DNA of 64,000 bases from Candidatus Omnitrophota bacterium (GTDB lineage: Bacteria; Omnitrophota; Gorgyraeia; Tantalellales; Tantalellaceae): the NCBI GenBank assembly GCA_043823005.1, contig JBDRBG010000013.1:25233-89232 (forward strand), in the 5' to 3' direction. The position numbers and the translations under genes were made by a program. Below are positions 12,978-55,278 of this stretch, in pieces (positions within the stretch are counted from its first letter, which is position 1; every line of letters begins with the position of its first letter). The notes under the pieces are model-generated. The model did no database searches. It saw nothing but the letters and a program-made list of their open reading frames with translations, and was not told where the DNA came from.

Positions 12978-13048
12978 CGTCTTTGCGATGGAGTGAAGGG
13001 GAGCGCGGTCCGCCAGAGGCGGATCCGCCTTTGGCGGACACTCTCGCA
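12978..13048 (+). repeat. family-1 repeat, long form, with GGCGGATCCGCC hairpin module
   Basis: CGTCTTTGCGATGGAG...CGCGGTCCGCCAGAGGCGGATCCGCCTTTGGCGGACA. Confidence 0.8.
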
Positions 13049-13365: not shown

Positions 13366-13418
13366 GGGAGCGAAGCGACCGCGGCCCTCCTTAGGCGGAT
13401 CCGCCTTTGGCGGACAAT
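13366..13418 (+). repeat. family-1 repeat, long form
   Basis: GTCTTTGCGAGGGAGCGAAGCGACCGCGGCCCTCCTTAGGCGGATCCGCCTTTGGCGGACA. Confidence 0.85.
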
Positions 13419-15587: not shown

Positions 15588-15649
15588 TGCCTTTGAGAGC
15601 GACCCCCGGGAGAGCGGTCCTCCTGAGGCGGATCCGCCTTTGGCGGACA
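15588..15649 (+). repeat. family-1 repeat, degenerate long form
   Basis: TTGCCTTTGAGAGCGACCC..GAGCGGTCCTCCTGAGGCGGATCCGCCTTTGGCGGACA. Confidence 0.6.
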
Positions 15650-16333: not shown

Positions 16334-16729
16334 ATGAAAGAAGAACGAAAAAATCCTCGTTATAAAGCGGCATATTTTCTGGAAATGGAAACCGGAAAGA
16401 AGAACATCGCGCTTGAGCTTATAGATTTAAGCAAATGCGGGATATCGTTTTTATCTCCCCAAAAACTCCGAAAAGGAACAAATCTCAGGGTAAGGATCTT
16501 TTTTAAAACAAAAAAGGTCAGTTTAGACGCGAAAGTGATAACCGCGGAAACTTCTGATAAAAACAAAACTCTTATAGGAGCAGAACTGCTTAGTGTCCCG
16601 GAAGAATTCAAAACCATTCTTGATAAAGAAATAGACGAAATCCAGAAACTTCAGATAAAACTAAACGTTCGAAGACAAGACCCAGTTTCTTTTAAACAAG
16701 CTTCCGCAGAATATTTAAATAATGAATAG
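16334..16729 (+). CDS. PilZ-domain protein (c-di-GMP binding)
   Basis: Contains RKNPR (RxxxR) and DLSKCGISF (DxSxxG) motifs. Confidence 0.6.
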   Translation: MKEERKNPRYKAAYFLEMETGKKNIALELIDLSKCGISFLSPQKLRKGTNLRVRIFFKTKKVSLDAKVITAETSDKNKTLIGAELLSVPEEFKTILDKEIDEIQKLQIKLNVRRQDPVSFKQASAEYLNNE

Positions 16730-21000: not shown

Positions 21001-22224
21001 AAAGCTCTCCAAAATTTCACAAAACACGCAAAACAAGAAGGCTATGCTCATATAGTCGGCATATTGCAGGAAGCAGGCGTACATGCGTCCGCAAGACAGT
21101 TATATTGGTTAATAGAACATTTAAAAAGGAACGGGGTGAATAGATTTGTATTAGATCTGGCGACTGACGGTAGAGATGAAGGGGGCAGGGACTCTTTGAT
21201 CAGGATAAAAGAACTTAGAGCCGCTTTAAAATTTTATGGCATACAGGATAAAGATTATGTCTTAAATTTGCGGGGCAGGGAGATCTGTTTTGACAGGGCA
21301 AAGAACTGGAACTTAACAGAAGCATGGATAAATGAACTTGTCTGGGGAAGTAGAATAGATAAAAGCATCGGCGCCGGATATATAACGAAAGAACTGATTT
21401 TAAATAGCTATGAAAAGGGGAAAGAACTCTGGGAAAAAATGATTGAAAAACGCTGGTTAGTAAAGGTTAATGACGAAGAAGCTAAAATACAGGACAAGGA
21501 ATGGAGGGAGGACGGAGATTTCGGAGGAGGACTTGATGAATACAAAAACTCTATAGAAGGTATTTTAAAACAGTCCAGATTCAAAAAACTGCTGGATAAC
21601 GAAGGGATCGTTGCGAATATCCTGCGTAATGCTTTCAGCGCATTGAACGAGAACCAAGAAAAACAAATATTGGCTTTTGATCTGGAGCTTGGGAATAAAA
21701 AAGCAGGCAGGTTGATAAAACAGCTTGTACAAGCTATTGAAGAAATGAAACAAGACAATATATTAAATAAGATCCTGAAAAACATAGAGATAATCAAAGT
21801 CAATGGAGCGGAGTTAGGTAACAGACTGGATATTTTGACTAAGAGCGAAACGGGCATAAAAAAAGAGAACATTATCATTATAGCGAAAAAGACAAATAAA
21901 AACTATTTTACGGGATATGATAGCGTCTCGACAATAGCGTATATAGATGATTCGGAACTATCGAAAGAAGACCTTCTTCCATTACCCGAAATAACGCTTT
22001 TTGCAATAGCAAAGCATCTGGGGTGGAGTGCGGATAAATTAGAGCATCTATATGCGTGCATTTTAAATGCAGAAAGTGTTAACAGCTTAGCTGAATTTAC
22101 TGAAAAATTCGGAAAAGACAAAACTTCCTTTATTGTAAAGATTATCCCTAAAGCCGTTAGGTTTGATATGCAGGAATTAAAGGAAGTTGTAGATCAAATG
22201 GTCAGGATATTAAAATACGCTTAA
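18031..22224 (+). CDS. large secreted protein with an embedded iPGM-like / alkaline-phosphatase-superfamily metalloenzyme domain
   Basis: 1397 aa with a signal peptide. The segment from about 19870 to 20400 has NLDGPDLIGHVAG, LVGDHGS and KPTEMTGKSLL, matching iPGM C-terminal motifs (PDMVGH, ADHG, PAEMTGKSL). Confidence 0.7.
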   Translation: MFKKVLVLVVSFLLISQNIPCFSSPISAHSQQNVQITTLFNLADQEDAYTVALAKYFFVFLDKLDTTLQGADFKNVEKLIKARVEQFQDGAKTLIKHERETKKGIVEKNLPMIKVDESAGELLVIMSDYIVRYYNPKTSKKDQILGEETFKEYSYKVSEEDDINGRLRKQILQRGKEPVLVKLLMEMQDKKERDVTIDEIAQLLLSRNEQEYVLSLMLYILNAIEEVGEDFVDDKVNRIYEQADNIIKTVEKKLLDTKDIKKKIKNESNIREMYRHNYPFIRRKADVDGNLNEIVIHVGEYALRYYNGQTAYAKYELEDPEDSKNAEPVFYSAVQEGPVDGALRVQLLKVEDDADASPAETPIISAVNARNEQNKSNYPSDIKREDPYLFFRLRELRMPIYSQKDDTYYVWDNDSVEKVVKMRHDMGDNDEKLPPVIQIDEMGNVKDRVKEETPLYDINFRADRQKQWVGVILEKSLTPFKVAYQILKAVLVVTTQYLPIVNSENVILEKTKVENGLVEVLTREGIYVKYVFDAEKGKFIPAFRGGQEEPFDKELEDLEFGSISMPVLMTEEQCNKHDPAVKMRLKDKYIGWFYGDVPKGLKQIPNKEYRKYPGLSMFVLARATATKIREAKEGTFGLTNLDGPDLIGHVAGKDVEKITDLFVETEEGKFELKQGNGWDCVLECLKIADAGLNLMMKEVEDKEGVFILVGDHGSVDDMRFPNHSANDVPIFIIDYENEDIKLVKSTGSQKDTQADVAVTILHVLGIDKPTEMTGKSLLPEDYKGRKDRIVWQVILDGFGHTDLDPEQNAFLRAREKGITPTIKKLYDMKNYVLLKAAGMYAGLRGGWVEEIYEMNQQAKKEGGVQYDPLKRKAMITQLESTQDNYWKKIKIVNYDYRDIPQAQLLCSYENGLDILKRSSLLQDKMFLVNYDQEHFMTKDIPDRTVEVVCLDLRQIGSTEYNTWTLGAGRIVEQSIRRIDKRWLNGTMLKSKALQNFTKHAKQEGYAHIVGILQEAGVHASARQLYWLIEHLKRNGVNRFVLDLATDGRDEGGRDSLIRIKELRAALKFYGIQDKDYVLNLRGREICFDRAKNWNLTEAWINELVWGSRIDKSIGAGYITKELILNSYEKGKELWEKMIEKRWLVKVNDEEAKIQDKEWREDGDFGGGLDEYKNSIEGILKQSRFKKLLDNEGIVANILRNAFSALNENQEKQILAFDLELGNKKAGRLIKQLVQAIEEMKQDNILNKILKNIEIIKVNGAELGNRLDILTKSETGIKKENIIIIAKKTNKNYFTGYDSVSTIAYIDDSELSKEDLLPLPEITLFAIAKHLGWSADKLEHLYACILNAESVNSLAEFTEKFGKDKTSFIVKIIPKAVRFDMQELKEVVDQMVRILKYA

Positions 22225-22430: not shown

Positions 22431-22570
22431 ATGGTTAGTGTTATTTGCTGAGACATAAAAGTCTACTCGGAGCAAATAACACATGCTTTTGTCCGCATTA
22501 TTCACCTGTATCGTTCTAAAAAAGTTGACACTTTTTCTGTCGGAGCCGTCTCCTGACGGCGAACCTAATT

Positions 22571-22611
22571 CGTCTTTGCGAGGAGGAGCGTAGTGACGAC
22601 GCGGCAATCTC
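22571..22611 (+). repeat. family-1 repeat
   Basis: CGTCTTTGCGAGGAGGAGCGTAGTGACGACGCGGCAATCTC, preceded by the GAGCCGTCTCCTGACGGCGAACC module. Confidence 0.85.
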
Positions 22612-22874
22612 TTGTTTTTCAGGACAAGACACCATTTACCAAAGTTGGCTTAATTGTTCGTCTACAATGCAGAATGTAGGAAGAAAAAGGCTTCTTGCTA
22701 GAAGCTTTTTGTGGGATAGTGTTATTTTCTGCTTTACAAGTATGGATTTAGTATGCATTTAGGACTACAAATAAGAGCAAGTATGTAGTATAATAATGCC
22801 GCAAATGACCGGAGATGCTGCGTACAGGTTGTAACAAAAAACAAGTTAAAGAAAATTTGATATAAGGAGGGGAC

Positions 22875-23832: not shown

Positions 23833-23873
23833 GTAAATAGGGACGTCACCCGCCAGGGAGACGTCCCTATTTA
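23833..23873 (+). repeat. GACGTC-centred hairpin element (family 2), copy 1
   Basis: GTAAATAGGGACGTC-ACCCGCCAGGGA-GACGTCCCTATTTAC. The stop codon of the upstream gene lies in the left arm. Confidence 0.8.
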
Positions 23874-23947
23874 CATTAAGCTATTCTCCTGGTAAACTAG
23901 GAAAATATGCAGGCAAGTAATAATAGTTTCAAGCCAGAGATGTATTC

Positions 23948-24343
23948 ATGCTCAACAATTTGAACAAAAGAAAAGTTTTTGTTACGACACTTTACACAAG
24001 CATTTTTTTCTTGCTTGGAGTGTCTTTTTTGTTTGGGTCTTTTTTCTCTGGGATTTTAATGTTTTCATTGATAACAAGTCTTAAAATGCGACATCAGCAC
24101 AAAAACACAGCAGCAATCATTCTTTTAGTTCTATCCATACTATTTTTAGCATATCCCGGAACATTTATGACAGGAGAAACAGAGGATTTGTTCGCTGTAA
24201 AAATAATGCCGGTTATTTATCAAGAGCACTATCTAAAAGGAGAGGTCAGACAAATAAAAGGAAACATTGTTTTTTGTAAGCATGAAAAAATACCTTTTGC
24301 GCCTAAATGGGCGCTAGTCTTTTGTTTTAGCGGTAGTAAATAG
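23948..24343 (+). CDS. small membrane protein, hypothetical
   Basis: 131 aa with two or three TM segments. It lies between two identical hairpin elements. Confidence 0.4.
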   Translation: MLNNLNKRKVFVTTLYTSIFFLLGVSFLFGSFFSGILMFSLITSLKMRHQHKNTAAIILLVLSILFLAYPGTFMTGETEDLFAVKIMPVIYQEHYLKGEVRQIKGNIVFCKHEKIPFAPKWALVFCFSGSK

Positions 24344-24377
24344 GGACGTCACCCGCCAGGGAGACGTCCCTATTTAC
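24336..24377 (+). repeat. GACGTC-centred hairpin element (family 2), copy 2, identical to copy 1
   Basis: 42-nt identity with 23833-23873, including the embedded TAG stop. Confidence 0.8.
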
Positions 24378-25819: not shown

Positions 25820-26085
25820 AAAGTTACGATCAAAGGGGCTTATTTGTTTGTGCAGGATAACGGAGCCCAGCAAAGGGGATAAAAACTGCATTTAGAACAA
25901 CAGATATTTTCACGATTTTGCTCTCCTCGATGCCATTTAGTTTCACATGTCCAGTAACTTTGGCATTTTTCACAGCAAATAAGTTTTTTCTTCTTTTTTT
26001 GGGACATAGGGCATTCTCCTCTACATGGTATTTGAAAGCAGTAACATAATTATATAATGAAAAAGTTTTTATTTCAATACCAATC

Positions 26086-26120
26086 TGAGGGACGTCACCC
26101 GACAGGGAGACGTCCCTATG
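26086..26120 (+). repeat. GACGTC-centred hairpin element (family 2), diverged copy 3, fused to a family-1 repeat
   Basis: GAGGGACGTCACCCGACAGGGAGACGTCCCTATG is immediately followed by CGTCTTTGCGAGG...GCGGCAATCT. Confidence 0.7.
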
Positions 26121-26238: not shown

Positions 26239-26266
26239 TTGACAAAAAAGACTCAATATGTATAAT
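26239..26266 (+). promoter_or_regulatory. candidate sigma70 promoter of the rnf operon
   Basis: TTGACA, a 16-nt spacer, then TATAAT, located 42 nt upstream of the rnfC start. Confidence 0.5.
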
Positions 26267-26307: not shown

Positions 26308-27642
26308 ATGAAAAAATTTATGACTTTTACCTTTAAAGGAGGGATACACCCTTCTTATAAAAAAGAAATAAGCCTAAAAGAGTCTTTTAAACAGGTTGTT
26401 CTTCCCGATAAAATAGAAGTACCGATATCCCAGCATATTGGAAAACCGGCTGACCCTATTGTTAAAAAAGGGGATCTTGTAGAAGAAGGCAGTATTATTG
26501 CTGATTCCAACGCTTTTATTTCGTCCTGTATTCATTCTTCTGTAAGCGGGAAAGTTCTTGATATAAAGAAAGCTTTTCATCCCAGTTTGGGGCCGACACT
26601 ATCCATTTTCATAGAGAGAGACAAAAGCAAGGCGCCAAAGGAATATCCCAAGATAGAAGAACAATGTTGTTCAGCTCAAGAGATTATACAAAAGGTTCGG
26701 GACGCGGGAATCGTGGGTATGGGAGGAGCGGCTTTTCCGACTCATGTAAAATTAAGTGTTCCGGAAGGAAAGAAAATCGACACCTTGATCATTAACGGAG
26801 CGGAATGCGAGCCTTATCTTACATGTGACCATGTGATGATGTTAAACAAGACACAGGAAATATTAGAAGGGATAGGCCTTATTTTTCGGGTATTACAGCC
26901 GAAAAAAACCTATATAGCTATTGAAAATAACAAACAAAATGTGTTGGATGCTTTTCACTGTGGACTAAAAACAGCAGAATCGCTAAAAGGTGCAGAGGTA
27001 GAGATTATTGCGCTTGAAACAAAGTATCCTCAAGGAGGGGAAAAACAGCTTATTAGCGCTATTTCCGGCAAAGAAGTTCCGCCCGGAAAACTGCCTTTAG
27101 ATATAGGGTTTCTTGTGCAGAATATAGGAACAATATATGCCATATATGAAGCCGTTTATTTTAATAAGCCTCTTCTGCAAAGAATGGTTACGATTTCAGG
27201 GGATTGTGTGGAAAATCCGGGTAACTATATTGTAAAGATAGGAACAACTGTTACGGATTTAATAGAACTATGCGGGATCAAGTTTAAAAAGAACCCCAAA
27301 AAAGTTATTATAGGAGGACCTATGATGGGGTTTTCCCAGCCCGGGACAGATGCGGCTGTTCTTAAAAATACTTCGGGCATACTTTTTTTGTCTGAAGAGA
27401 CTGCTCCTGATTTTGAAGAAGGGCAATGTATAAGGTGCGCGAAATGTGTAGATGTATGTCCTGTAAGATTATCTCCTACGGATATTATGAGAAGCGCGAA
27501 AAAGAATTTATGGGACAAAACAGAAGAAGCCTACGTTACAGATTGTATGGAATGCGGGAGTTGTACATATGTTTGTCCCGCAAGGATTCCTCTTGTTCAA
27601 TATATAAAAGAAGCCAAAAGAATAATCGCAAAGAAAAAGTAA
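26308..27642 (+). CDS. rnfC: Rnf electron-transport complex subunit C
   Basis: 444 aa with two 4Fe-4S motifs (CIRCAKCVDVCP, CMECGSCTYVCP) and the INGAECEPYLTCD motif. Confidence 0.85.
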   Translation: MKKFMTFTFKGGIHPSYKKEISLKESFKQVVLPDKIEVPISQHIGKPADPIVKKGDLVEEGSIIADSNAFISSCIHSSVSGKVLDIKKAFHPSLGPTLSIFIERDKSKAPKEYPKIEEQCCSAQEIIQKVRDAGIVGMGGAAFPTHVKLSVPEGKKIDTLIINGAECEPYLTCDHVMMLNKTQEILEGIGLIFRVLQPKKTYIAIENNKQNVLDAFHCGLKTAESLKGAEVEIIALETKYPQGGEKQLISAISGKEVPPGKLPLDIGFLVQNIGTIYAIYEAVYFNKPLLQRMVTISGDCVENPGNYIVKIGTTVTDLIELCGIKFKKNPKKVIIGGPMMGFSQPGTDAAVLKNTSGILFLSEETAPDFEEGQCIRCAKCVDVCPVRLSPTDIMRSAKKNLWDKTEEAYVTDCMECGSCTYVCPARIPLVQYIKEAKRIIAKKK

Positions 27643-27646: not shown

Positions 27647-28591
27647 ATGAATAAACTTACTATAAATAGTTCACCCCATGTTTCTGCTCCGCTAGATACT
27701 CAGGGCATCATGAAAGGCGTTATAACAGCGCTTATTCCTGCCATGATTGCGGGTATATATTTTTTCAGATGGCAGGCAGTAAGCGTTATTATCGCAACAG
27801 TCGCGGGAAGTGTTGCCGCGGAATATCTGCTTCAGAAGCTTAGAAAGAAAAAAGTGCAAATAAAGGATTTTAGCGCAATTCTTACCGGCCTTCTTTTGGC
27901 ATTGGTTTTGCCTCCTGCAATTCCTCTTTGGATGGCTTTTTTTGGCGGAGTTTTCGCTATAAGTTTGGGTAAAGAAATATTCGGGGGATTGGGTAACAAC
28001 ATTTTTAATCCGGCGCTTCTTAGCCGGGCGTTTCTTATGGCGTCGTTTCCGGTTGTTCTGACAACATGGACCGCGCCTGTCGCTATAGATGCCGCGACTA
28101 TGGCGACACCGCTTGCTCTGGTAAAATTTGATCATATAATTACTCCATATTCAGATCTTTTTCTGGGTAATGTAGGAGGGTGTTTGGGAGAGACATCTTC
28201 CGCGGCATTGCTTTTAGGCGCGATATATCTTTTGTGGAAGAAAATAATTGATTACAGGATACCGTTAGCATATATAGGAACAGTAGTTGTTATTGCCGCG
28301 ATTACGCATATAATAAACCCGAAAGTTTTTGCGGGGCCTGTATTTCACGTGTTGGCAGGAGGCCTTTTAATCGGCGCGGTATTTATGGCGACAGATCCGG
28401 TAACCTCTCCGGTAACGCTTAAAGGAAGATGGATTTTTGGAATAGGATGCGGCTTTATTGCGATGGTTATACGTTTATGGGGAGGGTTGCCGGAAGGAGT
28501 GATGTATTCCATTTTATTGATGAACGCGTTGACTCCGCTTATTAATCGGGCGACAAAGCGGAAAAGGTTTGGAATAACGGGGGGGAAATAA
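27647..28591 (+). CDS. rnfD: Rnf complex subunit D
   Basis: 314 aa polytopic NqrB/RnfD-family protein. Confidence 0.85.
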   Translation: MNKLTINSSPHVSAPLDTQGIMKGVITALIPAMIAGIYFFRWQAVSVIIATVAGSVAAEYLLQKLRKKKVQIKDFSAILTGLLLALVLPPAIPLWMAFFGGVFAISLGKEIFGGLGNNIFNPALLSRAFLMASFPVVLTTWTAPVAIDAATMATPLALVKFDHIITPYSDLFLGNVGGCLGETSSAALLLGAIYLLWKKIIDYRIPLAYIGTVVVIAAITHIINPKVFAGPVFHVLAGGLLIGAVFMATDPVTSPVTLKGRWIFGIGCGFIAMVIRLWGGLPEGVMYSILLMNALTPLINRATKRKRFGITGGK

Positions 28592-28596: not shown

Positions 28597-29163
28597 GTGA
28601 AAAATTTTTTACAAAACAATGTTACAAAAATGATAGTTGCTCTGGCTGTGGTCGGAGCTGTTTCAGGTCTTAGTCTGGTTTTTGTTTATAAGTACGCGAT
28701 GCCCAAAATTAAAATAAACATAAATAAAGAAATGGACAAAGCAATAAAGAGTATTTTTCCGGGGACGGATAAAACGGAGAAAATAGAGGGTCAGCAAGAT
28801 GTTTTTAAGGTCAGAGATAAGAAAGGGATTTTATTGGGATATGCTTTTGTTGCAGAGGGAAACGGATACCAGGGGATAATAAAAATAATAGTTGGTGTGG
28901 ATGAAAAGATTATAAAAACCAAAGGGATGGAAGTTCTTGAGTCTCAAGAAACACCCGGGCTCGGAGCTGAAATCGCGAACGGAAAATTTAAAGATCAGTT
29001 TAAGGGGTTGTCTATTGTCCAGGCAATAGAGTATGTTAAGAACCAGAACCCGCAAAAACCTTATGAAATAGAAGCCATAACAGGCGCTACAATTTCATCA
29101 AGGGCAGTTGTAAATATAATCAACAAGAAACTAGCGGAAATACGCGAGGCGTTGCGTAAATAA
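28597..29163 (+). CDS. rnfG: Rnf complex subunit G (FMN-binding)
   Basis: 188 aa with an N-terminal TM segment and the EAITGATISSRAV FMN-binding motif. Confidence 0.8.
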   Translation: MKNFLQNNVTKMIVALAVVGAVSGLSLVFVYKYAMPKIKININKEMDKAIKSIFPGTDKTEKIEGQQDVFKVRDKKGILLGYAFVAEGNGYQGIIKIIVGVDEKIIKTKGMEVLESQETPGLGAEIANGKFKDQFKGLSIVQAIEYVKNQNPQKPYEIEAITGATISSRAVVNIINKKLAEIREALRK

Positions 29164-29176: not shown

Positions 29177-29797
29177 ATGATAAAAGATTTTGTAAAAGGA
29201 TTATGGCGGGAAAATCCGGTGTTCGTTCAGGTCTTAGGAATGTGTCCGACCCTGGCGGTTACGACAAAAGCGCTGTTTGGACTTTCTATGGGCATGGCGA
29301 CTACATTTGTGGTTGTTTCTTCCAGCATAGTGGTATCTGTTATAAGAAAATTTGTCCCCGAGCAGGTCAGAATTCCGATGTTTACGGTTATAATCGCCAC
29401 TTTTGTAACGCTAGCGGATTATTTCTTAAAAGCTAATTTTTTTCAGATAAGCAAGGCGTTAGGGCCTTATATTCCATTGATAGTGGTCAATTGTCTTATT
29501 TTGGGCAGAGCAGAAGCCTTTGCTTCTAAGCAAGGGCCAGTAAGAGCGTTTTTTGACGCTTTAGGTATGGGGATCGGGTTTACTTTAGCTTTAATTGTTT
29601 TAGGCTCAATAAGAGAGATTTTAGGAGCAGGAACTATTTTTGAAGCGCGTATAATGGGACAGGGCTTTACGAATTGGATTGTTATGGTTCTTCCTGCCGG
29701 AGCGTTTATAACGCTGGGGCTTCTGGTTGGTGTGTTTAATGTTATTGATGAGAAAAAAAAGAGTAAACAAAAAAAGTTTAGGGTAAACGAAAAATGA
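29177..29797 (+). CDS. rnfE: Rnf complex subunit E
   Basis: 206 aa RnfA/RnfE-family protein (GMCPTLAVTT). Confidence 0.85.
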   Translation: MIKDFVKGLWRENPVFVQVLGMCPTLAVTTKALFGLSMGMATTFVVVSSSIVVSVIRKFVPEQVRIPMFTVIIATFVTLADYFLKANFFQISKALGPYIPLIVVNCLILGRAEAFASKQGPVRAFFDALGMGIGFTLALIVLGSIREILGAGTIFEARIMGQGFTNWIVMVLPAGAFITLGLLVGVFNVIDEKKKSKQKKFRVNEK

Positions 29798-30375
29798 AAC
29801 AACTTATATTGGTTTTTATCGCGGCAAGCATAACCAACAATTTTGTGTTAACATATTTTTTAGGAATATGCCCTTTTATTGGAGTTTCTAATAAGATAGA
29901 CAGCGCGATCGGTCTTGGCATGGCCACTACTTTTGTTATGACCATGGCCGCGACAGTTACGTGGCTTATTTATCATTATATTCTGGTGCCGTTTAATGTC
30001 GCATTTTTGCAGTATGTTACTTTTATTATAGTCATAGCTAGTTTTGTGCAATTTGTGGAGATGTTTATAAAAAAAGTATCGCCCGCTTTGTATAAAGCTT
30101 TAGGCATATTTTTGCCGCTTATAACTACTAATTGCGCGATACTCGGACTTACTTTATTTATGGTTCTGAGGAATTATGCTTTTTTGGAGTCCGTTATTTT
30201 TGGACTCGGCGCGGGAGTGGGCTTTACTATAGCGCTGGTGATAATGGCTGGTATCAGAGAGGATCTTGTTTTTTCTGAAATACCCAAACCATTACAAGGA
30301 GCAGGCATAACTTTGATAATAGCCGGAATGCTTGCTTTAGCGTTTATGGGTTTTGGCGGAATCATAGGCGGATAG
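29794..30375 (+). CDS. rnfA: Rnf complex subunit A
   Basis: 193 aa RnfA-family protein (LGICPFIGVS). Its stop overlaps the rnfE start. Confidence 0.85.
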   Translation: MKQLILVFIAASITNNFVLTYFLGICPFIGVSNKIDSAIGLGMATTFVMTMAATVTWLIYHYILVPFNVAFLQYVTFIIVIASFVQFVEMFIKKVSPALYKALGIFLPLITTNCAILGLTLFMVLRNYAFLESVIFGLGAGVGFTIALVIMAGIREDLVFSEIPKPLQGAGITLIIAGMLALAFMGFGGIIGG

Positions 30376-30443
30376 CACAAAAAGAGTCGTTGGTCGTTAG
30401 TTGTTAGTAAGAGCCGCCTCAGTGGGCCGACGGCGAAACCTTT

Positions 30444-30483
30444 CCGTCTTTGCGAGGAGGTCGCAGGCCGACGCGGCAATTTC
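30444..30483 (+). repeat. family-1 repeat
   Basis: CGTCTTTGCGAGGAGGTCGCAGGCCGACGCGGCAATTTCTC. Confidence 0.85.
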
Positions 30484-30488
30484 TCCGC

Positions 30489-30525
30489 TGTCTTTGCGAG
30501 GGAGCAAGAGCGACCGCGGCAATCT
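30489..30525 (+). repeat. family-1 repeat in tandem with the preceding copy
   Basis: GTCTTTGCGAGGGAGCAAGAGCGACCGCGGCAATCTC. Confidence 0.85.
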
Positions 30526-30564
30526 CTTTGGTGAATAGCGTCTTGTCTTGAAAGTACAGAGAAG

Positions 30565-30675
30565 AAAGAGCTGGAATGCGCGGCTGGAAGGGCAAACATT
30601 CCGTGCTCAAACAGTCCTCGGATGATCTCTTGATCATCCTGCGGAACTGTGCGCGGAATGCTTGCCCTTCCAGCT
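30565..30675. repeat. ~110-bp nested imperfect palindrome inside the rnfA-rnfB repeat block
   Basis: The outer arms AGCTGGAA...TTCCAGCT include 21-nt arms GCTGGAAGGGCAAACATTCCG / CGGAATGCTTGCCCTTCCAGC. The inner palindrome is GGATGATCTCTTGATCATCC. Confidence 0.6.
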
Positions 30676-30685
30676 GAAAAGATTC

Positions 30686-30720
30686 CGTCTTTGCGAGGAG
30701 CGAAGGGGAGCGCGGCAGTT
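30686..30720 (+). repeat. family-1 repeat, variant 3' end
   Basis: CGTCTTTGCGAGGAGCGAAGGGGAGCGCGGCAGTT. Confidence 0.75.
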
Positions 30721-30821
30721 TATTCAGTGAATAGTGGTGAGTGAATGGTGAATAGTTGCAGGAGCCGTCTCTTCGCCATAATAAGCGGATCCGCCTCAGT
30801 GGGCCAGCGGCGAACCCCTTC

Positions 30822-30863
30822 CGTCATTGCGAGGAGGCGCGGAGCGGCGACGCGGCAATATCG
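30822..30863 (+). repeat. family-1 repeat (GTCATTGCGAGG variant)
   Basis: CGTCATTGCGAGGAGGCGCGGAGCGGCGACGCGGCAATATCG. Confidence 0.8.
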
Positions 30864-30966
30864 ATAAAAGCAAAAAGGAAAAAGACAGAAACATATAAAT
30901 TTAAGATATGTAGTTTCTGAGGGCGAATAAGAAAATAGTTTAAAAAAGTAACAACAGAACAAAATA

Positions 30967-31773
30967 ATGGATAATTTGATTTTGGCATCAGTACTAAGCA
31001 TGACGGGATTGGCAATAATATTTGCCGCTGTTTTGGCTTTCGCGGATAAAAAATTAAGGGTTGAAGAAGACCCAAGAGTAGATAAGATCAATCATCTTTT
31101 ACCGGGGCTCAATTGCGGGGCCTGTGGATTTTTAAGCTGTCATGATTTTGCCGAACACATAGTGTTTGAAAACGCGGATCCGGGAAAATGCAGGGTTTTG
31201 GATGCGGAAACCAGAGAAGAACTGTTTAAACTTATAGGCCGGGAAGGGGCAAACCTTTATCCTAAAATTCCGGTTATTCATTGCGCGGCCGGATCAGAAA
31301 ATAAAAAAATAATGGCAGACTATAAGGGTATTAAAACGTGTTTAGCCGCGGATCTTATTTTTGGAGGCGGGATGCAGTGTGAATACGGCTGTATGGGGCT
31401 GGGCGATTGTGTAAGAGAATGTCCGTTTGACGCGTTAACGATGAAAGACGGCCTTCCTCTGGTGGATCAGGAAAAATGTACGGGCTGCGGTAAATGCGAA
31501 AAGGCGTGTCCCCGGAATATAATCAAGATCGAAGAAAAAAAACATAAAAAACTTTTTTACGTGGCATGCAGTTCTCATGATAATGCCTTAAGGGTTAGAC
31601 AGGTATGCGGAGTCGGCTGTATTGCTTGCGGGATCTGTGAGAAATTATCTCCGGAAGGATTTTTTAAAGTTACAGAAAACCTTTCGTACGCGGATTATTC
31701 GAAACAGGATAAACAGGAAGAAGTTGAAATCCTTAGTATGAAATGCCCGACTAAGGTTATAAAGAATATGTAA
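30967..31773 (+). CDS. rnfB: Rnf complex subunit B
   Basis: 268 aa with the N-terminal LPGLNCGACGFLSCHDFAEHI Fe-S motif plus CxxCxxCxxxCP ferredoxin motifs. It is separated from rnfA by a 590-bp repeat block. Confidence 0.8.
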   Translation: MDNLILASVLSMTGLAIIFAAVLAFADKKLRVEEDPRVDKINHLLPGLNCGACGFLSCHDFAEHIVFENADPGKCRVLDAETREELFKLIGREGANLYPKIPVIHCAAGSENKKIMADYKGIKTCLAADLIFGGGMQCEYGCMGLGDCVRECPFDALTMKDGLPLVDQEKCTGCGKCEKACPRNIIKIEEKKHKKLFYVACSSHDNALRVRQVCGVGCIACGICEKLSPEGFFKVTENLSYADYSKQDKQEEVEILSMKCPTKVIKNM

Positions 31774-31791
31774 CACAGTGGGGACACGTCG

Positions 31792-31865
31792 GAAAGGGAC
31801 ACACTTCACTGACAGAATATATATGAAGTGTGTCCCTTTCAGTCATGTCCCCGAATTTTATTTTT
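31792..31865 (+). terminator. strong hairpin with T-rich tail after rnfB
   Basis: Perfect 17-bp stem GAAAGGGACACACTTCA / TGAAGTGTGTCCCTTTC with a 15-nt loop, followed by TTTTATTTTTATTT. Confidence 0.6.
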
Positions 31866-31897
31866 ATTTGTCATTGCGAAAACACAAGGATAAAAAC

Positions 31898-35170: not shown

Positions 35171-35261
35171 ACAAAAAATTAGTTCAGAGGGACACCCCAG
35201 GGATTGAAATTGGGACAGGTCTGGGATTAATTTCAGAACCGTCCCTGATTTCCGCTCTTCT

Positions 35262-35337
35262 GTCTTTGCGAGGGAGCAAGTGTGATTGCGTCAATTCTCC
35301 GTCTTCGCGAGGAGCGTGAGCGACGCGGCAAACTCGG
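35262..35337 (+). repeat. two tandem family-1 repeats, the first degenerate
   Basis: GTCTTTGCGAGGGAGCAAGTGTGATTGCGTCAATTCTC followed by CGTCTTCGCGAGGAGCGTGAGCGACGCGGCAAACTCGG. Confidence 0.75.
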
Positions 35338-35686
35338 ATAGAAATAGAATAAAAAGAAAAAATAAACCACAGAGAGCACAGAGGCACAGAGGGGGAAATA
35401 AGGCGCCTTTGGCGCCGTTCACGGGTCAAGGGTGAAGGGAAAGCGCTTCATCCGTCATTGGAGGAGTGTAGATATTAGGGACGGTTCTGAATTTGAACCT
35501 ACACCTGTCCCAAAATTAATCCCACACCTGTCCCCTAACCGTCGAAAGTTGGGTTTTGAATGGCTCTGTGACTCAGAGGCTCTGTGGTGAAAAATCTGGA
35601 AATCGGTCTTTAAAAAAGTGAATCGTCGTTAGTGAATGGTGAATAGTGAGATTGCCGCGGTCGCTCGTGCTCCCTCGCAAAGACAG
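35338..35686 (+). repeat. upstream flank block of the giant gene: modules Y (CACAGAG-rich), Z and X (CTCTGTGACTCAGAG-containing), then an inverted family-1 copy
   Basis: Shares long stretches with 50840-51072, for example ...AGAAATAGAATAAA..AGAAAAAA..CAGAGAGCACAGAG.CACAGAGGGGG and TTGGGTTTTGAAT.GCTCTGTGACTCAGAG.CTCTGTGG.GAAAAATCTGGAAATCGGTCTTTAAAAAAG. Confidence 0.75.
35648..35686 (-). repeat. family-1 repeat, inverted orientation
   Basis: GAGATTGCCGCGGTCGCTCGTGCTCCCTCGCAAAGACAG. Confidence 0.85.
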
Positions 35687-35707
35687 AAAAGGAGGAATGA
35701 CCCATTT

Positions 35708-35750
35708 CGTCATTGCGAACCCTGAGCCAAGCGAAGGGTGCGGCAATCTC
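35708..35750 (+). repeat. family-1 repeat, diverged
   Basis: CGTCATTGCGAACCCTGAGCCAAGCGAAGGGTGCGGCAATCTC. Confidence 0.7.
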
Positions 35751-35820
35751 TAGAAAAAGTAAAAAAAAGACAGGGCTGGGAGTGGATTCAACCTGTTTTC
35801 AATCTTCAGGAAAGCTTTCA

Positions 35821-35850
35821 TTAGACTAACTAGCTTTTCCGTGATATAAT
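35821..35850 (+). promoter_or_regulatory. candidate promoter of the giant gene
   Basis: TTAGAC, an 18-nt spacer, then TATAAT, located 75 nt upstream of the ATG at 35926. Confidence 0.35.
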
Positions 35851-35925
35851 GCACGAAATATTTTTGCAAATAATGCATATATATTAGAAAATGTTAATAA
35901 TCAATACGAATAATATAACGAAACA

Positions 35926-38900
35926 ATGATACGACATCAAACAAAATACAAATTCTGGATAAAAAGTATCACAATAGCTGTTTTATGTTTGTTTGTGGTA
36001 AATGATTTTGTGTTCGCGATTAATACTATTAAGGAACGAATGCCAAAATATACATTAGCGCCTGTTTCGCGGCTTAGCCCTATGGTGACAATCACAGGAA
36101 CAGGCAAGGACTTGTCTATTGTCGAAGAATTTTCTGACATATCTAATTTAGCCGAAGAATTTAAAAAAGACATTAGTTTTTCTTATATAACGCAGTTAAT
36201 CTCCCAGGTATTAACTGATTATGGCGTTAAAATTACTGCTCAAGGATTAATAAAACTTATCAGTCAGGATCTTGCTCATATTGATTTTAAAAAATACAGA
36301 TTTGACGGATTGTATCAGGATGAAGAGGTTTTTTATCTTCCCTGTTGTCTAAGCTGTATGGGAAAAGAATGGGAAAACAAGATTTACCTCAGGTATTATC
36401 CTAAAAAATATAAACCCCAAGGATCTTTTGATGAATATAAAGTTTTAAAAACGATTGATCTGAAAAGCGAAGAAATTATTTGTGAAGTATGTTGTTTGAA
36501 AAAAGATAATCCTGAGATATTGCAGAAGTTTGTTCTTGAAAACCCGCAGAAAAAACCCGAAGACAAGAAAAACGACATGATAGATACGCGTCCTGTTAAA
36601 GCTAACCTTCTTCACGAACTATACGTCGAACATGACATGGCAGTTAAAGAGATTATAAATCTTGAAAACAAACTATTAACAGCTGTATATGGCGGAGCAG
36701 GAGCAGATATATCGAATTTTTTATTGTCTACTAACGCGCAAAAAGGATATTTTATTTCACAATATAAAAACTTTTGGTCAGAACTATCAGCACAAGACCT
36801 GAAAGAATGTTTCGAGTCTCTCAGTGCAGAAGCATATATAAAAAAATATTGCAGTAAATGGTACTCTAAAAGTAAATATCATGATGGTTATGGAACTGCC
36901 GCGTTTATCTGGACTAATTGGCAGATAATAGCAGCGCTGGCTTTAGAGCTAAAAGCAATAGGAGTTGATCTAAGCACAGTTAAAGTGATCAAAGAAAAAG
37001 GATGTCCTGCAATACAATTTAAATGGAATTATTCCGGGGCAGAAGAAAAAGAATATAAAATAATTTTTGTAAATGCGGATATAACACGTCCTGAAGAATA
37101 TCAAGACATATTAAAGGACGAGAAAATAGACATTTATTATCAGCGCGCAGGGCTTGAAATCGCAAAAAATTATAAGAAGAAAACGAAAAGTTTTATTAAT
37201 TTTATTAACCAATGCATGAGAAAAGATGGATATTATGTTACAGATGATAATATCTGGTCTTCATTTTGGTTTATAAAGGCTAAGACTCCGCCTTTTCCAG
37301 TGAAAGCTAAAGAAATAAAAACCCCCAGAATTATAGACATGGACAAAAAGGTCCTAAAATTACGGAAGTGGTGTTTTCTGGCAGCAGATAATATTAAGGC
37401 TTATGGAGTTTGCGTAAATATCAGAAAAAAGCTTGATACGGAAAACGAACAAGATATTAATAATAATATCGATCAGCGCCTAGTTAAAGCCGGTCTTCTC
37501 CACGAACTATATGTCGAACATGATATGGCGGTTAAGGAAATAGTCAACCCGGACAATAAACCCTTAACAGTAGTATATGGCGGAGCAGGAGCTGATATAT
37601 CAAATTTTCTTTTGTCTACAAACGCTATAAAAGCTTTTTTTGTGGATAAAGTAGAAATTGATATTGAAAGAATACAAAAGCTTAAATATGAAAGCTGGGA
37701 CAAGCTAGAGCAACTTATAGAACAGGTTAAAACAGAAGAAGGAGAATCTTACAGGGCGTATAAAGAACGGTTTGGGTATGGGATTACTTGGGGAGAAACA
37801 GAAGAAGAAAAAAAGGATCTGGAACTTCTTATTCTTTTTGAATTAAAAGCCATAGGAGTTAATAAAAACTCGATCAGGATCAGAAACAATAAAGGCTTTC
37901 CGGAGATCAAGTTCAAGTGGACTTATTTAAATGGTGTTCAAAAACAATATTCGATTACATTTATTAATACTGCTATTGATGAACCGGAAAAATACCCAAA
38001 ATTATTACAAGATGTCTTAAAGAAAAAAATAGATATTTATTATCAGAGAGCAGGTAATTATATTGCTTCTAATTATGAAAAATTCCTTCCTTTGATAGCA
38101 TCAAAATTAAAAGCGGGAGGATTTTTAATTACAGATGACTTTTTGCCTATTGGGACCAGCGGATCTTTTTTGAAAAAACTCGTACAAAAGCATTTAAAAG
38201 ATATGTATATAGCTAATCCAGATTTGCTTTTGGCAGATAAAGAGCGGTCAATTTTTACTCAAAAAGATGAAATGAAAAATGACAGGATAAAACAAGCGGA
38301 GAGAAAAATCATAGAAGATAGACAACGTTATGTAAAGGATAGCAGCGGCAATTTTTCCCACTATGGCTGGGATGTTCATTTGCGCCAAAAAATAAGGTCT
38401 GTGAATACTGTCAAACCGCCTCCGGGGACGCCTGCTACGTTATTAAAATATATGTATGATAACAAAATATTTAAGGATAACGCGAAAACAGCTATGGATA
38501 TGGCAGGGCAAAGAGGCGGCAAAGATAGCCTTTCTACAATATATTATGAACTAAACGTTTTAAGAAGAGTTGGTTTAGCGATAAAATCCGGGACAAGGTA
38601 TTATTTGCGGGAGGAGGCCATAGAGATGCTTCCGGAGACAATAATAAATGAAAACCCTGAATTAAATATTGCTTACCCTTCGGAACAAGAGAAAACCAGG
38701 ATGAAAGAGCGGCTCAAAACCGGGTTTTCTCCAAAGACAAAAATTGATTTTTTGCGAAACCAGGGTTTTATCGGGCCGAAAGATATTATGAACGAATTTG
38801 GCAGGAAAAGAAAAAAAGGAGAACAGCAGTTTTTATGGGACGATGTGACGGATCCTGCAAAACTTTTTATGATAAATAAACTTGCCGGAAGTTTTGGGAT

Positions 38901-41900
38901 ACAGCCGGGAGAATTAACCGTGGGCCATTTCATGAAGAATAGGGAAGTTTTTAACGGCAAAAACATTCGAAGTCTTATTAACTGGTTTGATGCAAAATCC
39001 GGATGTAACGGCAGTTATAAGGAAGCATTAAAAAAACTGAAACAATATTTTAAAATACAAGATTTAATAGACAGGCAAATTCAAACAAGTGAACTTTTGC
39101 GTTTAATAAGACAAGGAAGAGCAAAAGAGGGAATAAATATATGGGAAAGAAGCATAAAATCGGCAAAATTATTTGTTCTTCAAATAGTTTCCGCAAAGAG
39201 AAGAAAGAAGATAGAACAGTTAAATGTTTATGATATTAGGGGCGGATTAGCCTGTTTTAAAGGCAACGGTGTTTCAGGGATCATCGATTGGGCGATGCGG
39301 AAGTTTTACTGCAAAAACAGCAGTGGAGTAGGAGTTCACCGTTTGAAAAAGTATTTAGGCAAACAAGACAAGGTTCCTCCGCATCCGGTATTATGTTTAT
39401 TTTGTACGGATTGGGAAGAGGCGATTAAGTCCGGAGTATTGTCATGCAAGACGTTAGCCGAAGAAGTAAGAGCCGTAGATTTAAAGGTAAGAGAATCTTT
39501 TAACGGAGAGGATGAACCGCATTATAATGCCGAATATTTTTCAACTGTAAGAATATTAGAAAAAAAAGATTTTATATTGCCTGTTTTAAAACAATGGAGT
39601 GGAGCCAAAAACAAGATTGGGATTGAAAGCCTTATGCGGATATATTGCCGGCAAATAAGGCCCATATTATATGGGCTCGATGAAAAGAAAAAATCAGGTT
39701 GTGATAGTATTGATGTTCCATCCCGGAATCTTGTTTCGGAAAAGCCGGTTCCTGATAAGCAAGAAAACAAAATAATTTTTAGAGGAATCGGCAAAAATGA
39801 AGATATGGATTATACGAATCTTTTCAGGGATCTGGATGCGGAAACCAGGGCCTTAGGCTGGCCTTTAGCGCGCAGACAAAGATATTTAACCCTTTTAGCT
39901 TCTATTAATAGCCTTGAAAGTAGAATGAAAGAGCTGACAGAGCGGGAATTACAGGCAAAAACAAAGGAATTTAAGGCGAGATTAGATTTAGAAGAAACAC
40001 TTGACGATCTTTTACCCGAAGCTTTTGCTGTTGTCAGGGAAACCGCGCGGCGCGTAATAAACGAAAGGCCGCATGATATACAAATTCTGGCCGGTATAGC
40101 TATGCATGAAGCTAAAGGAATAGAAATGGATTCCAGCCAGGGCAAAACTTTGACCGCGATGATGCCGGCTTATTTAAATGCTTTGACAGAACGGGGAGTG
40201 CAAATACATACGACTAACAATTATTTAGCTAAAAGAGACGCCGATTATATCGGTCGGATTTTTGACTTTTTGGGCCTAACCAGCGGAGCTATTACTTCAA
40301 AAGGATCTTTTTTGTTTAAAAAAGAAGGTAATCCGCGGACAACAAGTAAAATAAGAAACCTTTGCGTATTACCGCACAAAAATCAGGAGGAAATCAGGGT
40401 TTCTAAAAGAAGGATATATAATACTGATGTTGTGTATGGTTGGGCGAGAGAAATAGTTTTTGATAAGCTTAAGGATGACCTGGCTGACGGAAGGGGCAAT
40501 CTGGTTCAAAGAAACCTTGCTCCGGAGCTTATTATTGTGGATGAAGCAGACAGCCTTTTAATTGATGAGAATAAAGACATGTTGGTTTTAGCCGCGCAAA
40601 ATAAGAACTTTTTTGAGAGAAGATTTTTTGAATTAATATATGACTTTTCCGGCCGTTATATTCCGAAAATAGATTACAGCGTCGATATATACGAAAGAAC
40701 AGTATCTTTAACAGGAACAGGGAAAGTTTTGATCGAAGAGCTGTTATTGGAATCTCCGGCGCTTAAAAAAATAGACAGAGAGTATCTTGTTCTATTAATG
40801 GAAAAAGCCCTGGAAATACAGTTTTACGCGAAGGATGAAGATTATACTGTATGTTCGGGGAAAAAAGTTGTTATTGTTGATAAGTATAGCGGCAGGTTAA
40901 AAGACGGAAATGTCTGGGAACATGGGGTACAGCAATTTATAGAAAAACAGGAAAAGACTGTTTTACATGAGATGATCTTTTCGGTGCATGAGATGACGTA
41001 TAAAAACTATTATGGGCATCAGGAGAAAATAGCTCCTATGAGCGCTACTCTTTTGAGCGAGGAAGAAGAAATATCAGCTAATTATGGAGTAGAAATAGTA
41101 AAGATGCCTTTGCGAGTAGAGTCAAGACGCGAAAATTTGTATCCTTTAGTTTTTTTAACAAAAGAAGAAAAAAGGGCCGCTATATGTAAAGATGTTCTAG
41201 CTATGCAAAAGAAAAGGCGTCCTGTTCTGATCGGGGTGTCAACTATCAGGGAAGCTGAGAATATAAAAAAAATATTGAATAAAGCGGGTATTTTTCCGGA
41301 AATTCTGGACGGTAGGAACGAAACGATTGAAAGCAGTATTATAGAACGAGCCGGACAGTGTTCGGGCGTAACTATAGTTACACCGGCCGGAGCAAGAGGA
41401 GTGCATATACGGCTTGGGCAAGGTGTTTCTGCGCGCGGCGGTTTGCATGCAATAGGAGGGGTTTTTTATGAGAACAAGAGAATGGAGGATCAATTTAATA
41501 AACGCGCGGCCAGAGGCGGAGACCCCGGAAGTTCAAGAAATTATATATCGTTAGATGAAGAGAATATACGGATTTTTGGAGGAGATGACAGAAAAAAACT
41601 AAAACAAGCCCTGAAAAACCTTGAACAATTGGGCCTTTCACAGGAAGAAGCGATTTTATCTTCTGAAGGCAGAGAAATAATAAGAAATATTCAACATTTG
41701 CTCGGCAGGATTCGTAAGCGGCAGGAAGATTACGTCAGGCGGTCAAGAGAACGATTTTTAAAATATGATGATATTATAGATCCTTTTAGGGAATGTTTTT
41801 TCTCTTTTCGCCGAAGCATTCTTGAACTTGAGGATGAGGGGGAAAGAAGAAAAACATTAAAACTGATTGATGATTTATGGATACGATGTCAATTGGATTT

Positions 41901-50718: not shown

Positions 50719-50803
50719 ACCCCGGAAATGGGGACGGTTGTTGTATACGCTCAATAATTTGGTAACATTTTTTAAGGGGGCCTTACTGCTAACTTCGTTT
50801 GTC

Positions 50804-50839
50804 GTCATTGCGAGAAGCAAGAGCGACGCGGCAAACTCG
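50804..50839 (+). repeat. family-1 repeat
   Basis: CGTCATTGCGAGAAGCAAGAGCGACGCGGCAAACTCG. Confidence 0.8.
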
Positions 50840-51072
50840 AATGAAAATAGAATAAAGAAAAAAAATTAACCTCAGAGAGCACAGAGACACAGAGGGGGGA
50901 AACAAACTGAGGCGAGAAGAGGGAAAAAAGATATTGTTGGGTTTTGAATAGCTCTGTGACTCAGAGACTCTGTGGAGAAAAATCTGGAAATCGGTCTTTA
51001 AAAAAGCGAATAGTAGTTGGTGCATAGTGGAAAGAGATTGCCGCGGTCGCTCAAGCTCCCTCGCAAAGACGG
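50840..51072 (+). repeat. downstream flank block of the giant gene, homologous to 35338-35686
   Basis: Modules Y and X and an inverted family-1 copy occur in the same order as upstream. Confidence 0.75.
51034..51072 (-). repeat. family-1 repeat, inverted orientation
   Basis: GAGATTGCCGCGGTCGCTCAAGCTCCCTCGCAAAGACGG. Confidence 0.85.
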
Positions 51073-51171
51073 ATGAGGTTCGCTTTCGGACGTGTCCTGC
51101 GCCTGAGCAACGCGAATGGAACAGGGAGATGGCTCCGACTAACGACCCCCGACTAACGACTAACGTGCCGG

Positions 51172-55229: not shown

Positions 55230-55278
55230 TCGTTGGTCGTTCGTTGTTAATAGCCCTCTCCCGACGGCGAACCTCACC

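Follow-up and report, generated by a model that had tools for sequence, protein, structure and literature searches.

Why is the last gene of an rnf operon parted from its neighbours by almost 600 nucleotides (nt) of largely repetitive DNA? The question arises in a Candidatus Omnitrophota bacterium, within a stretch of 64,000 nt of contig JBDRBG010000013.1 (assembly GCA_043823005.1) that is called the window here; all coordinates are window positions. The rnf genes, identified by Pfam and open reading frame (ORF) coordinates, all lie on the plus strand. The first five, rnfC (26308-27642), rnfD (27647-28591), rnfG (28597-29163), rnfE (29177-29797) and rnfA (29794-30375), are joined in this order by junctions of +4, +5, +13 and -4 nt. 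rnfB (30967-31773) is full length, with residues 1 to 268 aligning with its relatives, and follows only after a gap of 591 nt (30376-30966). An earlier sequence-only reading had put this split at ~590 bp, as measured here, and had described rnfCDGEA as tightly packed with overlapping stops and starts; the packing is indeed tight, with a true overlap at one junction (-4 nt).

The spacer is probably a lineage-specific pile-up of mosaic repeats of the repetitive extragenic palindrome (REP) type, together with an orphan hairpin of ~110 nt, which arose by insertion and local duplication and is carried on the operon mRNA.

Modules of the rnfA-rnfB spacer

Read from 5' to 3' on the plus strand, the block consists of tandem heptamer arrays (H), GTAG-type hairpins (B) and REP-like hairpins termed C units, the family 1 of the earlier reading. 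It opens 10 nt past the rnfA stop with H1 (30385-30408), an array of AGTCGTT GGTCGTT AGTTGTT AGT that Tandem Repeats Finder reports with period 7. This is followed by B1 (30407-30440), a degenerate GTAG-type hairpin of the form GTAA-GA-GCCGCCTCAGTGGGCCGACGGC-GAA, and by two C units in head-to-tail order. C1 (30442-30485) has a CGTC tag, was found by nhmmer and scores 49.8 bits with the covariance model; C2 (30486-30528), of the consensus subtype with a TGTC tag, scores 54.7 bits and is 100% identical over 37 nt to 59341-59377. Next come a heptamer remnant, GGTGAATAG, and a linker that has no second copy in the window (30529-30573), then the long nested hairpin (30574-30686) and C3 (30683-30724; 39.5 bits), a unit with a degenerate 3' half in which GCAG replaces GCAA. 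The second half of the block contains H2 (30726-30755), an array of the GTGAAT type with copies at 35617-35647 and 56790-56806, and B2 (30758-30818), a long GTAG-type module which includes GCGGATCCGCC and the second CCGCCTCAGTGGGCC. The long form of B2 recurs at 59430-59478 on the minus strand and 61071-61120 on the plus strand. C4 (30819-30864), of the CGTCATTGCGAGGAGG subtype, scores 45.1 bits and is 85% identical to a B-C composite at 55265-55326. The block ends in a non-repetitive, A-rich (56% A) leader of 102 nt before rnfB (30865-30966), the last ~40 nt of which are predicted to be unpaired.

Each of the motifs that the earlier reading had named in the gap was located by pattern search. 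Its heptamer-pair motif is present as AGTCGTTGGTCGTTAG at 30385-30400 and AGTGAATGGTGAATAG at 30740-30755, and the pattern is matched eight times in the window (0.06 expected), always on the plus strand. The motif described as occurring twice is found as CCGCCTCAGTGGGCC at 30414 and 30791 and nowhere else in the window; the longer pattern originally given for it is mismatched once in the second copy. The four family-1 repeats stand at 30446, 30490, 30687 and 30823, and their 12-nt core is matched 19 times in the window against 0.15 expected. To call the gap entirely repetitive was an overstatement, as ~329 of the 591 nt (56%) fall into dispersed families and ~113 nt into a single-copy palindrome. 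Together, repeat modules and the long hairpin account for ~75% of the gap. The stretch 30539-30573 and the A-rich leader at 30865-30966 have no match elsewhere in the window.

The arrangement of the modules points to growth within the block. The gap contains two paralogous H-B-C composites and two further C units. B1 equals B2 minus an internal ~26 nt and is a deletion derivative of the long form at 30758-30818. The two B-C junctions are 88-89% identical and have in common a private 15-mer found nowhere else in the window, which argues that part of the block grew by local duplication. B-C composites of the same type also occur at 22542-22613 and 55252-55320.

The nested palindrome of 110 bp noted earlier is present, with its limits at 30583-30674, or 30574-30686 if outer pairs are counted, rather than 30565-30675. 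Its arms (30583-30609 and 30648-30674) are 27 nt long and 89% complementary, and they enclose an inner hairpin, GGATGATCTCTTGATCATCC, at 30620-30639. As RNA it folds at -70.2 kcal/mol (z = -9.5) into a duplex of 15 + 10 bp with one mismatch and a further stem beyond, followed by TGAAAAG rather than a U-run. A search for other copies found none in the window or in 80 loci (L001-L080), and in viral contigs it returned four unrelated hairpins with only the 10-nt arm ends in common. No flanking direct repeat that could represent a target-site duplication is visible at 30574-30686. The hairpin thus resembles Correia and ERIC miniature inverted-repeat transposable elements in having terminal inverted repeats and lying inside what is, by its sequence, a transcribed unit; it differs in being single copy in all data, with neither a target-site duplication nor an ORF.

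Part of the hairpin recurs in the neighbouring gene. Twelve nt of the 3' coding end of rnfA (CGGAATGCTTGC) are found exactly in the right arm of the palindrome and are complementary at 11 of 12 positions to the left arm, and a third, partial copy of the stretch (GCTGGAATGC) lies just upstream (30318-30335 vs. 30566-30579, 30592-30603 and 30654-30665). The rough chance expectation for this recurrence is ~0.005-0.01. The hairpin could have been seeded from rnfA sequence, or could offer alternative pairing with the rnfA coding end.

An assembly artefact (a chimeric join or a mis-collapsed repeat), or a hidden small gene or small RNA, is a very remote explanation of the gap. Repeat-rich DNA is prone to misassembly, yet the units here are at most 50 nt long with unique sequence between them, the genes on either side are intact, in frame and in the expected order, and comparable mosaics stand at 35171-35925 and 50719-51358. 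ORFs can be called mechanically in the gap (54 amino acids (aa) on the plus strand, 72-141 aa on the minus strand), but they run through the repeat modules. No Rfam family comes at or near its gathering score: over 30300-31000 the best E value is 0.49-0.5 (15.8-18.6 bits vs. gathering scores of 37-62), permissive matches on the palindrome are chance-level miRNA and snoRNA families (E 0.5-1.8), and across the whole window only tRNAs are found at gathering scores. A CRISPR array, integron attC sites, an intrinsic terminator and an internal promoter were also considered for the gap and ruled out on anatomy.

Repeat families and their known counterparts

For the C unit, nhmmer finds 23 significant copies in the window and the covariance model 24, including a weaker match at 63642 (E 0.03). 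All 24 are intergenic, in DNA that makes up ~13% of the window; of the 23 intergenic regions that reach 100 nt, 15 have one copy or more. Sixteen lie between co-oriented genes, two between convergent and five between divergent genes, and one is near the window end. Their orientation is uneven, with 21 on the plus and three on the minus strand. Only two pairs are head-to-head (35646-/35705+ and 56830-/56882+) and one is tail-to-tail, with the remaining copies single or head-to-tail.

The copies can be parsed as a (C/T)GTC tag, T/A, TTGC, GA, S2, GAG, N5-6, CGA, S2', GCG, GCAA and TCTC. The tag is CGTC in 16 of the 24 copies, TGTC in six, and CCTC and CGTT in one each. The stem is bipartite, consisting of 4-5 bp ((A/T)TTGC...GCAA(T)), a GA/GCG internal loop and then the S2 stem of 2-5 bp, which covaries between copies (GG/CC, GGCAC/GTGCC, GGCCT/AGGCC, ACCCT/AGGGT, AGGCC/GGTCT). 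The loop is 11-12 nt with GAG and CGA counted, or 5-6 nt if these form a G-C pair and tandem G.A pairs. RNAalifold on the raw MAFFT alignment recovered a 4-bp stem only, because the variable inner part was misaligned, and this alignment was replaced by one from the covariance model with a manual parse. When fitted to the model, the aligned copies show two-sided changes at each of the five inner-helix pairs, with 31 double-sided cells vs. 12.5 in shuffles, a count reached by none of 500 shuffles. The covariation score is 0.222 vs. 0.090 in shuffles, and register-shifted controls score far lower. By these comparisons the C unit is, as far as its sequence can predict, a structured hairpin: compensatory changes preserve the inner stem, which encloses a conserved core, GAG-N5-6-CGA. 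Mismatch counts of 9 (G-U) vs. 5 (A-C) allow folding on either strand.

The closest known counterpart is the CGTC-tagged REP superfamily (Di Nocera, De Gregorio & Rocco 2013), which includes dRS3 of Neisseria and RPE-4 and RPE-6 of Rickettsia. According to that survey (PMC3733652), its members have a CGTC tag (variants TGTC, CCTC), a continuous stem of 8-9 bp with A/T at the first two positions, a loop of 4-5 nt and an unpaired 3-nt tail (consensus CCA). They occur mostly as head-to-head dimers, and are multicopy and intergenic with a preference for co-oriented or convergent ORFs. The C unit has the same unpaired 5' tag (CGTC, TGTC or CCTC), an A/T stem start and a short unpaired 3' tail; like the superfamily as described there, it is found in high copy number, strictly between genes, near upstream 3' ends and with no transposase nearby. 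It departs from the same description in lacking a continuous 8-9 bp stem, having instead TTGC/GCAA, an asymmetric GA/GCG loop and 2-5 covarying bp, as well as a conserved GAG...CGA box around a 5-6 nt loop. Its tail is a conserved TCTC instead of CCA, and its copies are mostly single or head-to-tail rather than head-to-head dimers. Omnitrophota are not among the hosts listed in the accessible part of the survey (PMC3733652). As the stem and the dimer arrangement differ from those in that source, and the loop and tail do not clearly match, the C unit is taken as a structural variant related to the superfamily that belongs to none of its four families.

Outside the source genome, C units were found in Omnitrophota rnf loci L009 (four) and L061 (one), and the family is rare across ~390 kb of related Omnitrophota rnf loci. 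It is thus strongly expanded in the source lineage. A near-identical unit (TGTCATTGCGAGGGAGCGCAGCGACCGCGGCAATCTCC) is also present in four IMG/VR contigs classed as viral (L098-L101), which range from 41 to 60% GC, indicating that the family crosses very different genomes. In two of these (L100 and L101) it adjoins a classical GTAG-GGGCGAGGCGTGCCTCGCCC (GTAG-GGGC) palindrome. Full-text literature searches for the repeat sequence, for its translated peptides and for repeats of Omnitrophota yielded no relevant paper, the matches being to unrelated primers or off the subject.

The B module belongs near the GTAG REPs and REPINs, which are mobilised by RAYT (TnpA-REP) transposases whose genes the REPs often flank. 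Its best copy (62406) reads GTAG-GA-GCCCTC-TCCT-GAGGGC-GAA, that is, a tag, the extra GW bases, a stem, a 4-nt loop and a 3-nt tail, as in this class. The stem covaries between copies, with GCCCTC/GAGGGC replaced by GCCGTC/GACGGC at 22545. The module differs from REPIN-RAYT systems in that most tags are degenerate, inverted doublets are absent and the window has no RAYT gene. A clean GTAG is found in only two of ~6 copies, at 62406 and, on the minus strand, at 59478; in the gap the tags read GTAA and GCAG. A search for B modules in viral contigs gave no match.

Heptamer arrays related to H1 are found at 55220, 62385, 51136 and 35617, and the types in the window are RGTCGTT and RGTGAAT. The arrays border on the upstream gene's stop codon or run into it, and H or H-B composites are co-oriented with that gene in seven of seven cases. 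One of these composites is on the minus strand (59430-59506), directly 3' of a minus-strand SurA-like gene. At 55217-55229, 56773-56777, 62385-62394 and 16723-16729 the arrays begin a few nt before the stops of the purD, rpiB, DeoC-like and PilZ genes, whose last codons and stop they appear to supply. With a period of 7, TAG and TGA triplets occur in all three frames. The short tandemly repeated repetitive (STRR) sequences of cyanobacteria, reportedly described by Mazel et al. in 1990, are tandem 7-nt arrays in intergenic DNA with several heptamer types per genome. The H arrays resemble STRR in being short, intergenic and of several types in one genome; they differ in their heptamer sequences, in abutting or overlapping stops and in their constant orientation with the upstream gene.

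As combinations, these modules occur well beyond the rnf operon. Mosaics comparable to the gap flank a gene of 4930 aa, at 35171-35925 (four C units) and 50719-51358 (two C units), and smaller H-B-C blocks lie between co-oriented genes, namely purD-purE, rpiB-glyA and a DeoC-like gene with an alcohol dehydrogenase gene. Mosaic REP clusters inside operons have long been known from enterobacteria and Neisseria. The gap is similar to the bacterial interspersed mosaic elements (BIMEs) of E. coli and the NIMEs of Neisseria in combining several short repeat families with REP-type hairpins over hundreds of bases, even within an operon. The partner modules here are different, being heptamer arrays and a GTAG-type hairpin. 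In BIMEs, as described in PMC2817692, the REPs regularly alternate in orientation and are joined by defined linker motifs, whereas the C units of the gap (4/4) and most in the window (21/24) are on the plus strand. What is new in the present case is the host phylum, the hairpin with a GA/GCG loop and GAG...CGA box, the pairing of heptamer arrays with stop codons and the recurrent use of the rnfA-rnfB junction.

A bolder proposal is that the C unit is a distinct, widespread and as yet unnamed structured element, whose hairpin on the sense strand would be the target of a novel transposase for single-stranded DNA, or else of a nuclease or RNA-binding protein. In the Omnitrophota lineage at hand it would have been recruited, along with the heptamer arrays at stop codons, as general punctuation of operon mRNAs, with the rnf block acting as a working processing and stability switch of RnfB stoichiometry. 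Its presence in viral contigs of such different base composition would fit horizontal spread. The proposal as a whole is given only a small chance.

The junction in relatives and in the transcript

The spacing between rnfA and rnfB was compared across rnf loci labelled L001 onward, with junction statistics from up to 44 Omnitrophota loci. The best relatives are Omnitrophota metagenome-assembled genomes with RnfA identities of 84-89%. Median gaps are 2 nt for rnfC-rnfD and 0 nt for rnfD-rnfG (38 loci each, none of at least 90 nt), -1 nt for rnfG-rnfE (42 loci, two of at least 90 nt, both in one organism), and 3 nt for rnfE-rnfA (44 loci, one of at least 90 nt, plus L009 by manual reading). For rnfA-rnfB the median is 16 nt over 44 loci, most of which have gaps of -8 to +40 nt. 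In 12 of the 44 this gap is at least 90 nt. The generalisation that rnf genes are normally contiguous therefore applies to the other junctions and is too strong for this one, which is the only junction of the operon that repeatedly expands in the phylum. As outgroup gaps are mostly 7-50 nt as well, the tight state is ancestral, and the 591-nt block, which relatives lack, is derived.

In relatives the expanded junctions usually hold other repeats, which are specific to their lineages. In L003, L006/7, L019 and L028 they contain heptamer arrays with inverted partners; in L086/87, L088 and L091, classical GTAG-GGGC palindromes stand 0-3 nt past the rnfA stop, and the gap of L088 also holds two inserted small ORFs that are not annotated. 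To judge from these sequences, what is conserved at rnfA-rnfB is a tolerance of insertions rather than any sequence.

Other junctions are interrupted in a few relatives. The rnfE-rnfA junction is split in L009 (150-424; 274 nt) and L061 (4830-5000; 165 nt) by C-like units of the form CGTC-ATTGCGA...GCAATCTC, and those of L009 alternate in orientation. In L017 (3951-4400; the same as L084) a gap of 450 nt between rnfG and rnfE contains a 121-aa 23S_rRNA_IVP gene (Pfam E = 8e-35). Its product is an Avd-like four-helix bundle, and the gene is flanked by inverted heptamer arrays, GGTTTTA... and ...CCTAAAA. As a lead, heptamer arrays may be the termini of small cassettes, of which the inverted arrays without an ORF in L003, L006/7 and L028 may be remnants. 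A tblastn search for further array-flanked 23S_rRNA_IVP genes found them in one organism only (L017 = L084).

The presumed operon promoter (TTGACA-16-TATAAT; plus strand, 26239-26266) lies ~40 nt upstream of rnfC; no other site in the window matches the sigma-70 consensus at 12/12 positions. Immediately past the rnfB stop, a 73-nt hairpin (31780-31852; -44.3 kcal/mol, z = -6.3) is followed by a U-rich tract, giving a terminator-like feature at 31780-31870 on the same strand. Between them, no hairpin with a T-run is found in 30376-30966, where C units give way to A-rich sequence. The gap is G-rich (over 14 sliding 78-nt windows, C/G stays below 1 in ten and peaks at 1.16), and the whole spacer folds with z = -5.4, which together suggest a poor Rho entry site.

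A promoter for rnfB itself had been named as evidence that would refute the earlier reading, and the gap has no plus-strand match of at least 10/12. This makes it improbable that rnfB is an independent unit, with the gap as ordinary intergenic DNA holding the end of the rnfCDGEA transcript and an rnfB promoter. The last 102 nt are A/T-rich, non-repetitive and promoter-like, and REPs are frequent at the 3' ends of transcription units (PMC3733652). Weak 9/12 sigma-70-like matches are also present at 30939-30975; they overlap the rnfB ATG, however, and could not yield a translatable rnfB mRNA. Consensus-grade promoters do exist elsewhere, as the 12/12 match before rnfC illustrates, and a clear hairpin with a U-tract comes only after rnfB. 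As the gap has neither a comparable promoter nor a terminator, read-through into rnfB is likely, and a single rnfCDGEA-spacer-rnfB transcript appears the most economical reading of these motifs. No Shine-Dalgarno motif is found within 20 nt of the rnfB ATG. Translation of rnfB would then start independently from the A-rich leader without a Shine-Dalgarno sequence, as that of rnfC seems to do.

Transcription of the block invites the view that it is a selected internal control region, in which an RNase III site and barriers to decay set RnfB at a lower or independent level relative to RnfCDGEA. In its favour are the absence of an internal promoter or terminator, by which the block should be transcribed, the -70 kcal/mol hairpin with ~25 near-continuous bp plus a further stem, and the strong folding of the spacer (z = -5.4) while the rnfB leader stays open. 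The predicted duplex is long enough for RNase III, as in the intervening sequences of 23S rRNA that this enzyme excises, and a 23S_rRNA_IVP gene is carried in the rnf operon of L017/L084. Precedents exist in the Correia elements of Neisseria, which are RNase III-cleaved or transcript-protecting repeats (PMC2649163), and in mRNA stabilisation, one of the roles proposed for REPs (PMC3733652). The recurrent expansion of rnfA-rnfB, in 12 of 44 related loci, would also fit. Against it, identical module types stand beside unrelated genes (purD-purE, rpiB-glyA, the DeoC-like and alcohol dehydrogenase genes, tRNAs and the giant gene), the content of expanded junctions is wholly different between lineages, a gap of -8 to +40 nt suffices in most relatives, and the palindrome has no second copy or homologue by which its conservation could be judged. 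With modules in so many of the longer intergenic regions and next to unrelated genes, nothing indicates an adaptation specific to rnf, and selected control is considered unlikely.

An accumulation of inserted repeats in the most tolerant junction of the operon, carried on its mRNA, accounts for these observations more readily. Repeated insertion of elements, as originally suggested, agrees with the dispersal of the modules in intergenic DNA and with the tight junction of relatives. The elements would have arrived by insertion, likely through hairpin-recognising single-strand DNA transposition acting in trans, as proposed for REPs, and then grown by local duplication, placing the block between rnfA and the original A-rich leader of rnfB. 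They could persist as rnfB is the last cistron and has its own unstructured leader, making translational coupling dispensable. A single transcript would still span the operon, starting at the 26239-26266 promoter and ending at the hairpin and U-tract past rnfB. In this transcript the hairpins could block 3'-exonucleases and the long duplex could be an RNase III site, through which the levels of rnfCDGEA and rnfB mRNA may become uncoupled. Such uncoupling is regarded as a side effect rather than the reason for the block.

Several points weigh against this reading. The window contains no transposase, and no Y1_Tnp/RAYT (PF01797) match is found among the ORFs scanned with Pfam. The CGTC superfamily likewise has no known mobilising enzyme (PMC3733652), which leaves the mode of spread unproven. 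Exact-protein look-ups with RnfA and RnfB gave no conspecific sequence, scans of genome and metagenome contigs found no relative closer than ~89% in RnfA and 72% in RnfB, and the order of insertions and duplications can therefore not be reconstructed. Single C units are no stabler than shuffled sequence (z -1.5 to +0.4), and fitting the covariation alignment to the model tilts the count in favour of the proposed structure; the C hairpin is thus backed by covariation and not by energy. A further point is the strong plus-strand bias of the C units. The window opens at the origin region, with dnaA (1838-3244), dnaN, gyrB and gyrA and a sign change of GC skew near 2-3 kb, and nearly all of its genes are on the plus strand, co-oriented with replication. 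As the window thus represents one replichore, the bias cannot be assigned to replication or to transcription. Finally, the case for co-transcription, and for any influence on rnfB expression, comes only from motif scans.

If the accumulation of repeats is the correct explanation, dense REP-type repeat mosaics are present in Omnitrophota, a phylum known almost exclusively from metagenomes, and such mosaics can sit inside essential energy-conservation operons without destroying them. Operon predictors based on short intergenic distances would wrongly cut rnfB from rnfCDGEA. The enzyme that mobilises CGTC repeats could well be sought in a lineage like this one, where C units number about one per 2.7 kb, are strongly biased in strand and fall into clear subfamilies; such a lineage would also allow a test of action at the DNA versus the RNA level.

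Other repeats and genes in the window

Gene callers would be expected to produce spurious ORFs and wrong starts in blocks of this kind, and the gene downstream of rnfB is an apparent case. The purN ORF was called from a GTG at 31778, and its first 120 nt consist of the terminator-like hairpin, the U-rich tract and a C-unit fragment, GTCATTGCGA, at 31871. Its Pfam match covers the called ORF only from residue 41 on, and translation probably begins at the ATG at 31899.

The two mosaics flanking the giant gene (35926-50718) have a common composite of a CACAGAGG array, C units, heptamer arrays and GGGACAGGTGTGGGATT-type arms. The upstream mosaic also contains a 73-nt inverted repeat, with arms at 35189-35261 and 35462-35534 that are 200 nt apart.

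Two further palindromic families are present. Hairpins of the form (GTAAA)TAGGGACGTCACCC-N4-GGGAGACGTCCCTA(TTTAC) are found at 23833-23874, 24336-24377 and 26095-26120. Two genes each have one immediately behind their stop codon, another precedes the rnfC promoter, and two of the copies are identical over 42 nt. The family GTCCGCCAGAGGCGGATCCGCCTTTGGCGGAC is found at 13008-13039, 13386-13415, 15617-15648 and 61090-61160. It is twice fused to the 3' half of a truncated C unit, and its core, GCGGATCCGCC, also lies inside the long B module of the rnf gap.

Divergent from rnfC, a cysteine-rich ORF of 55 aa (MSQKKKKKLICCEKCQSYWTCETKWH...) is encoded on the minus strand at 25840-26007. It is preceded by a GAGGAG ribosome-binding site and an 11/12 sigma-70 promoter (26077-26049) and has no Pfam match. 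A protein of 1397 aa (18031-22224) is unusually long for one resembling phosphoglycerate mutase, and its iPGM_N and Metalloenzyme domains are confined to the second half.

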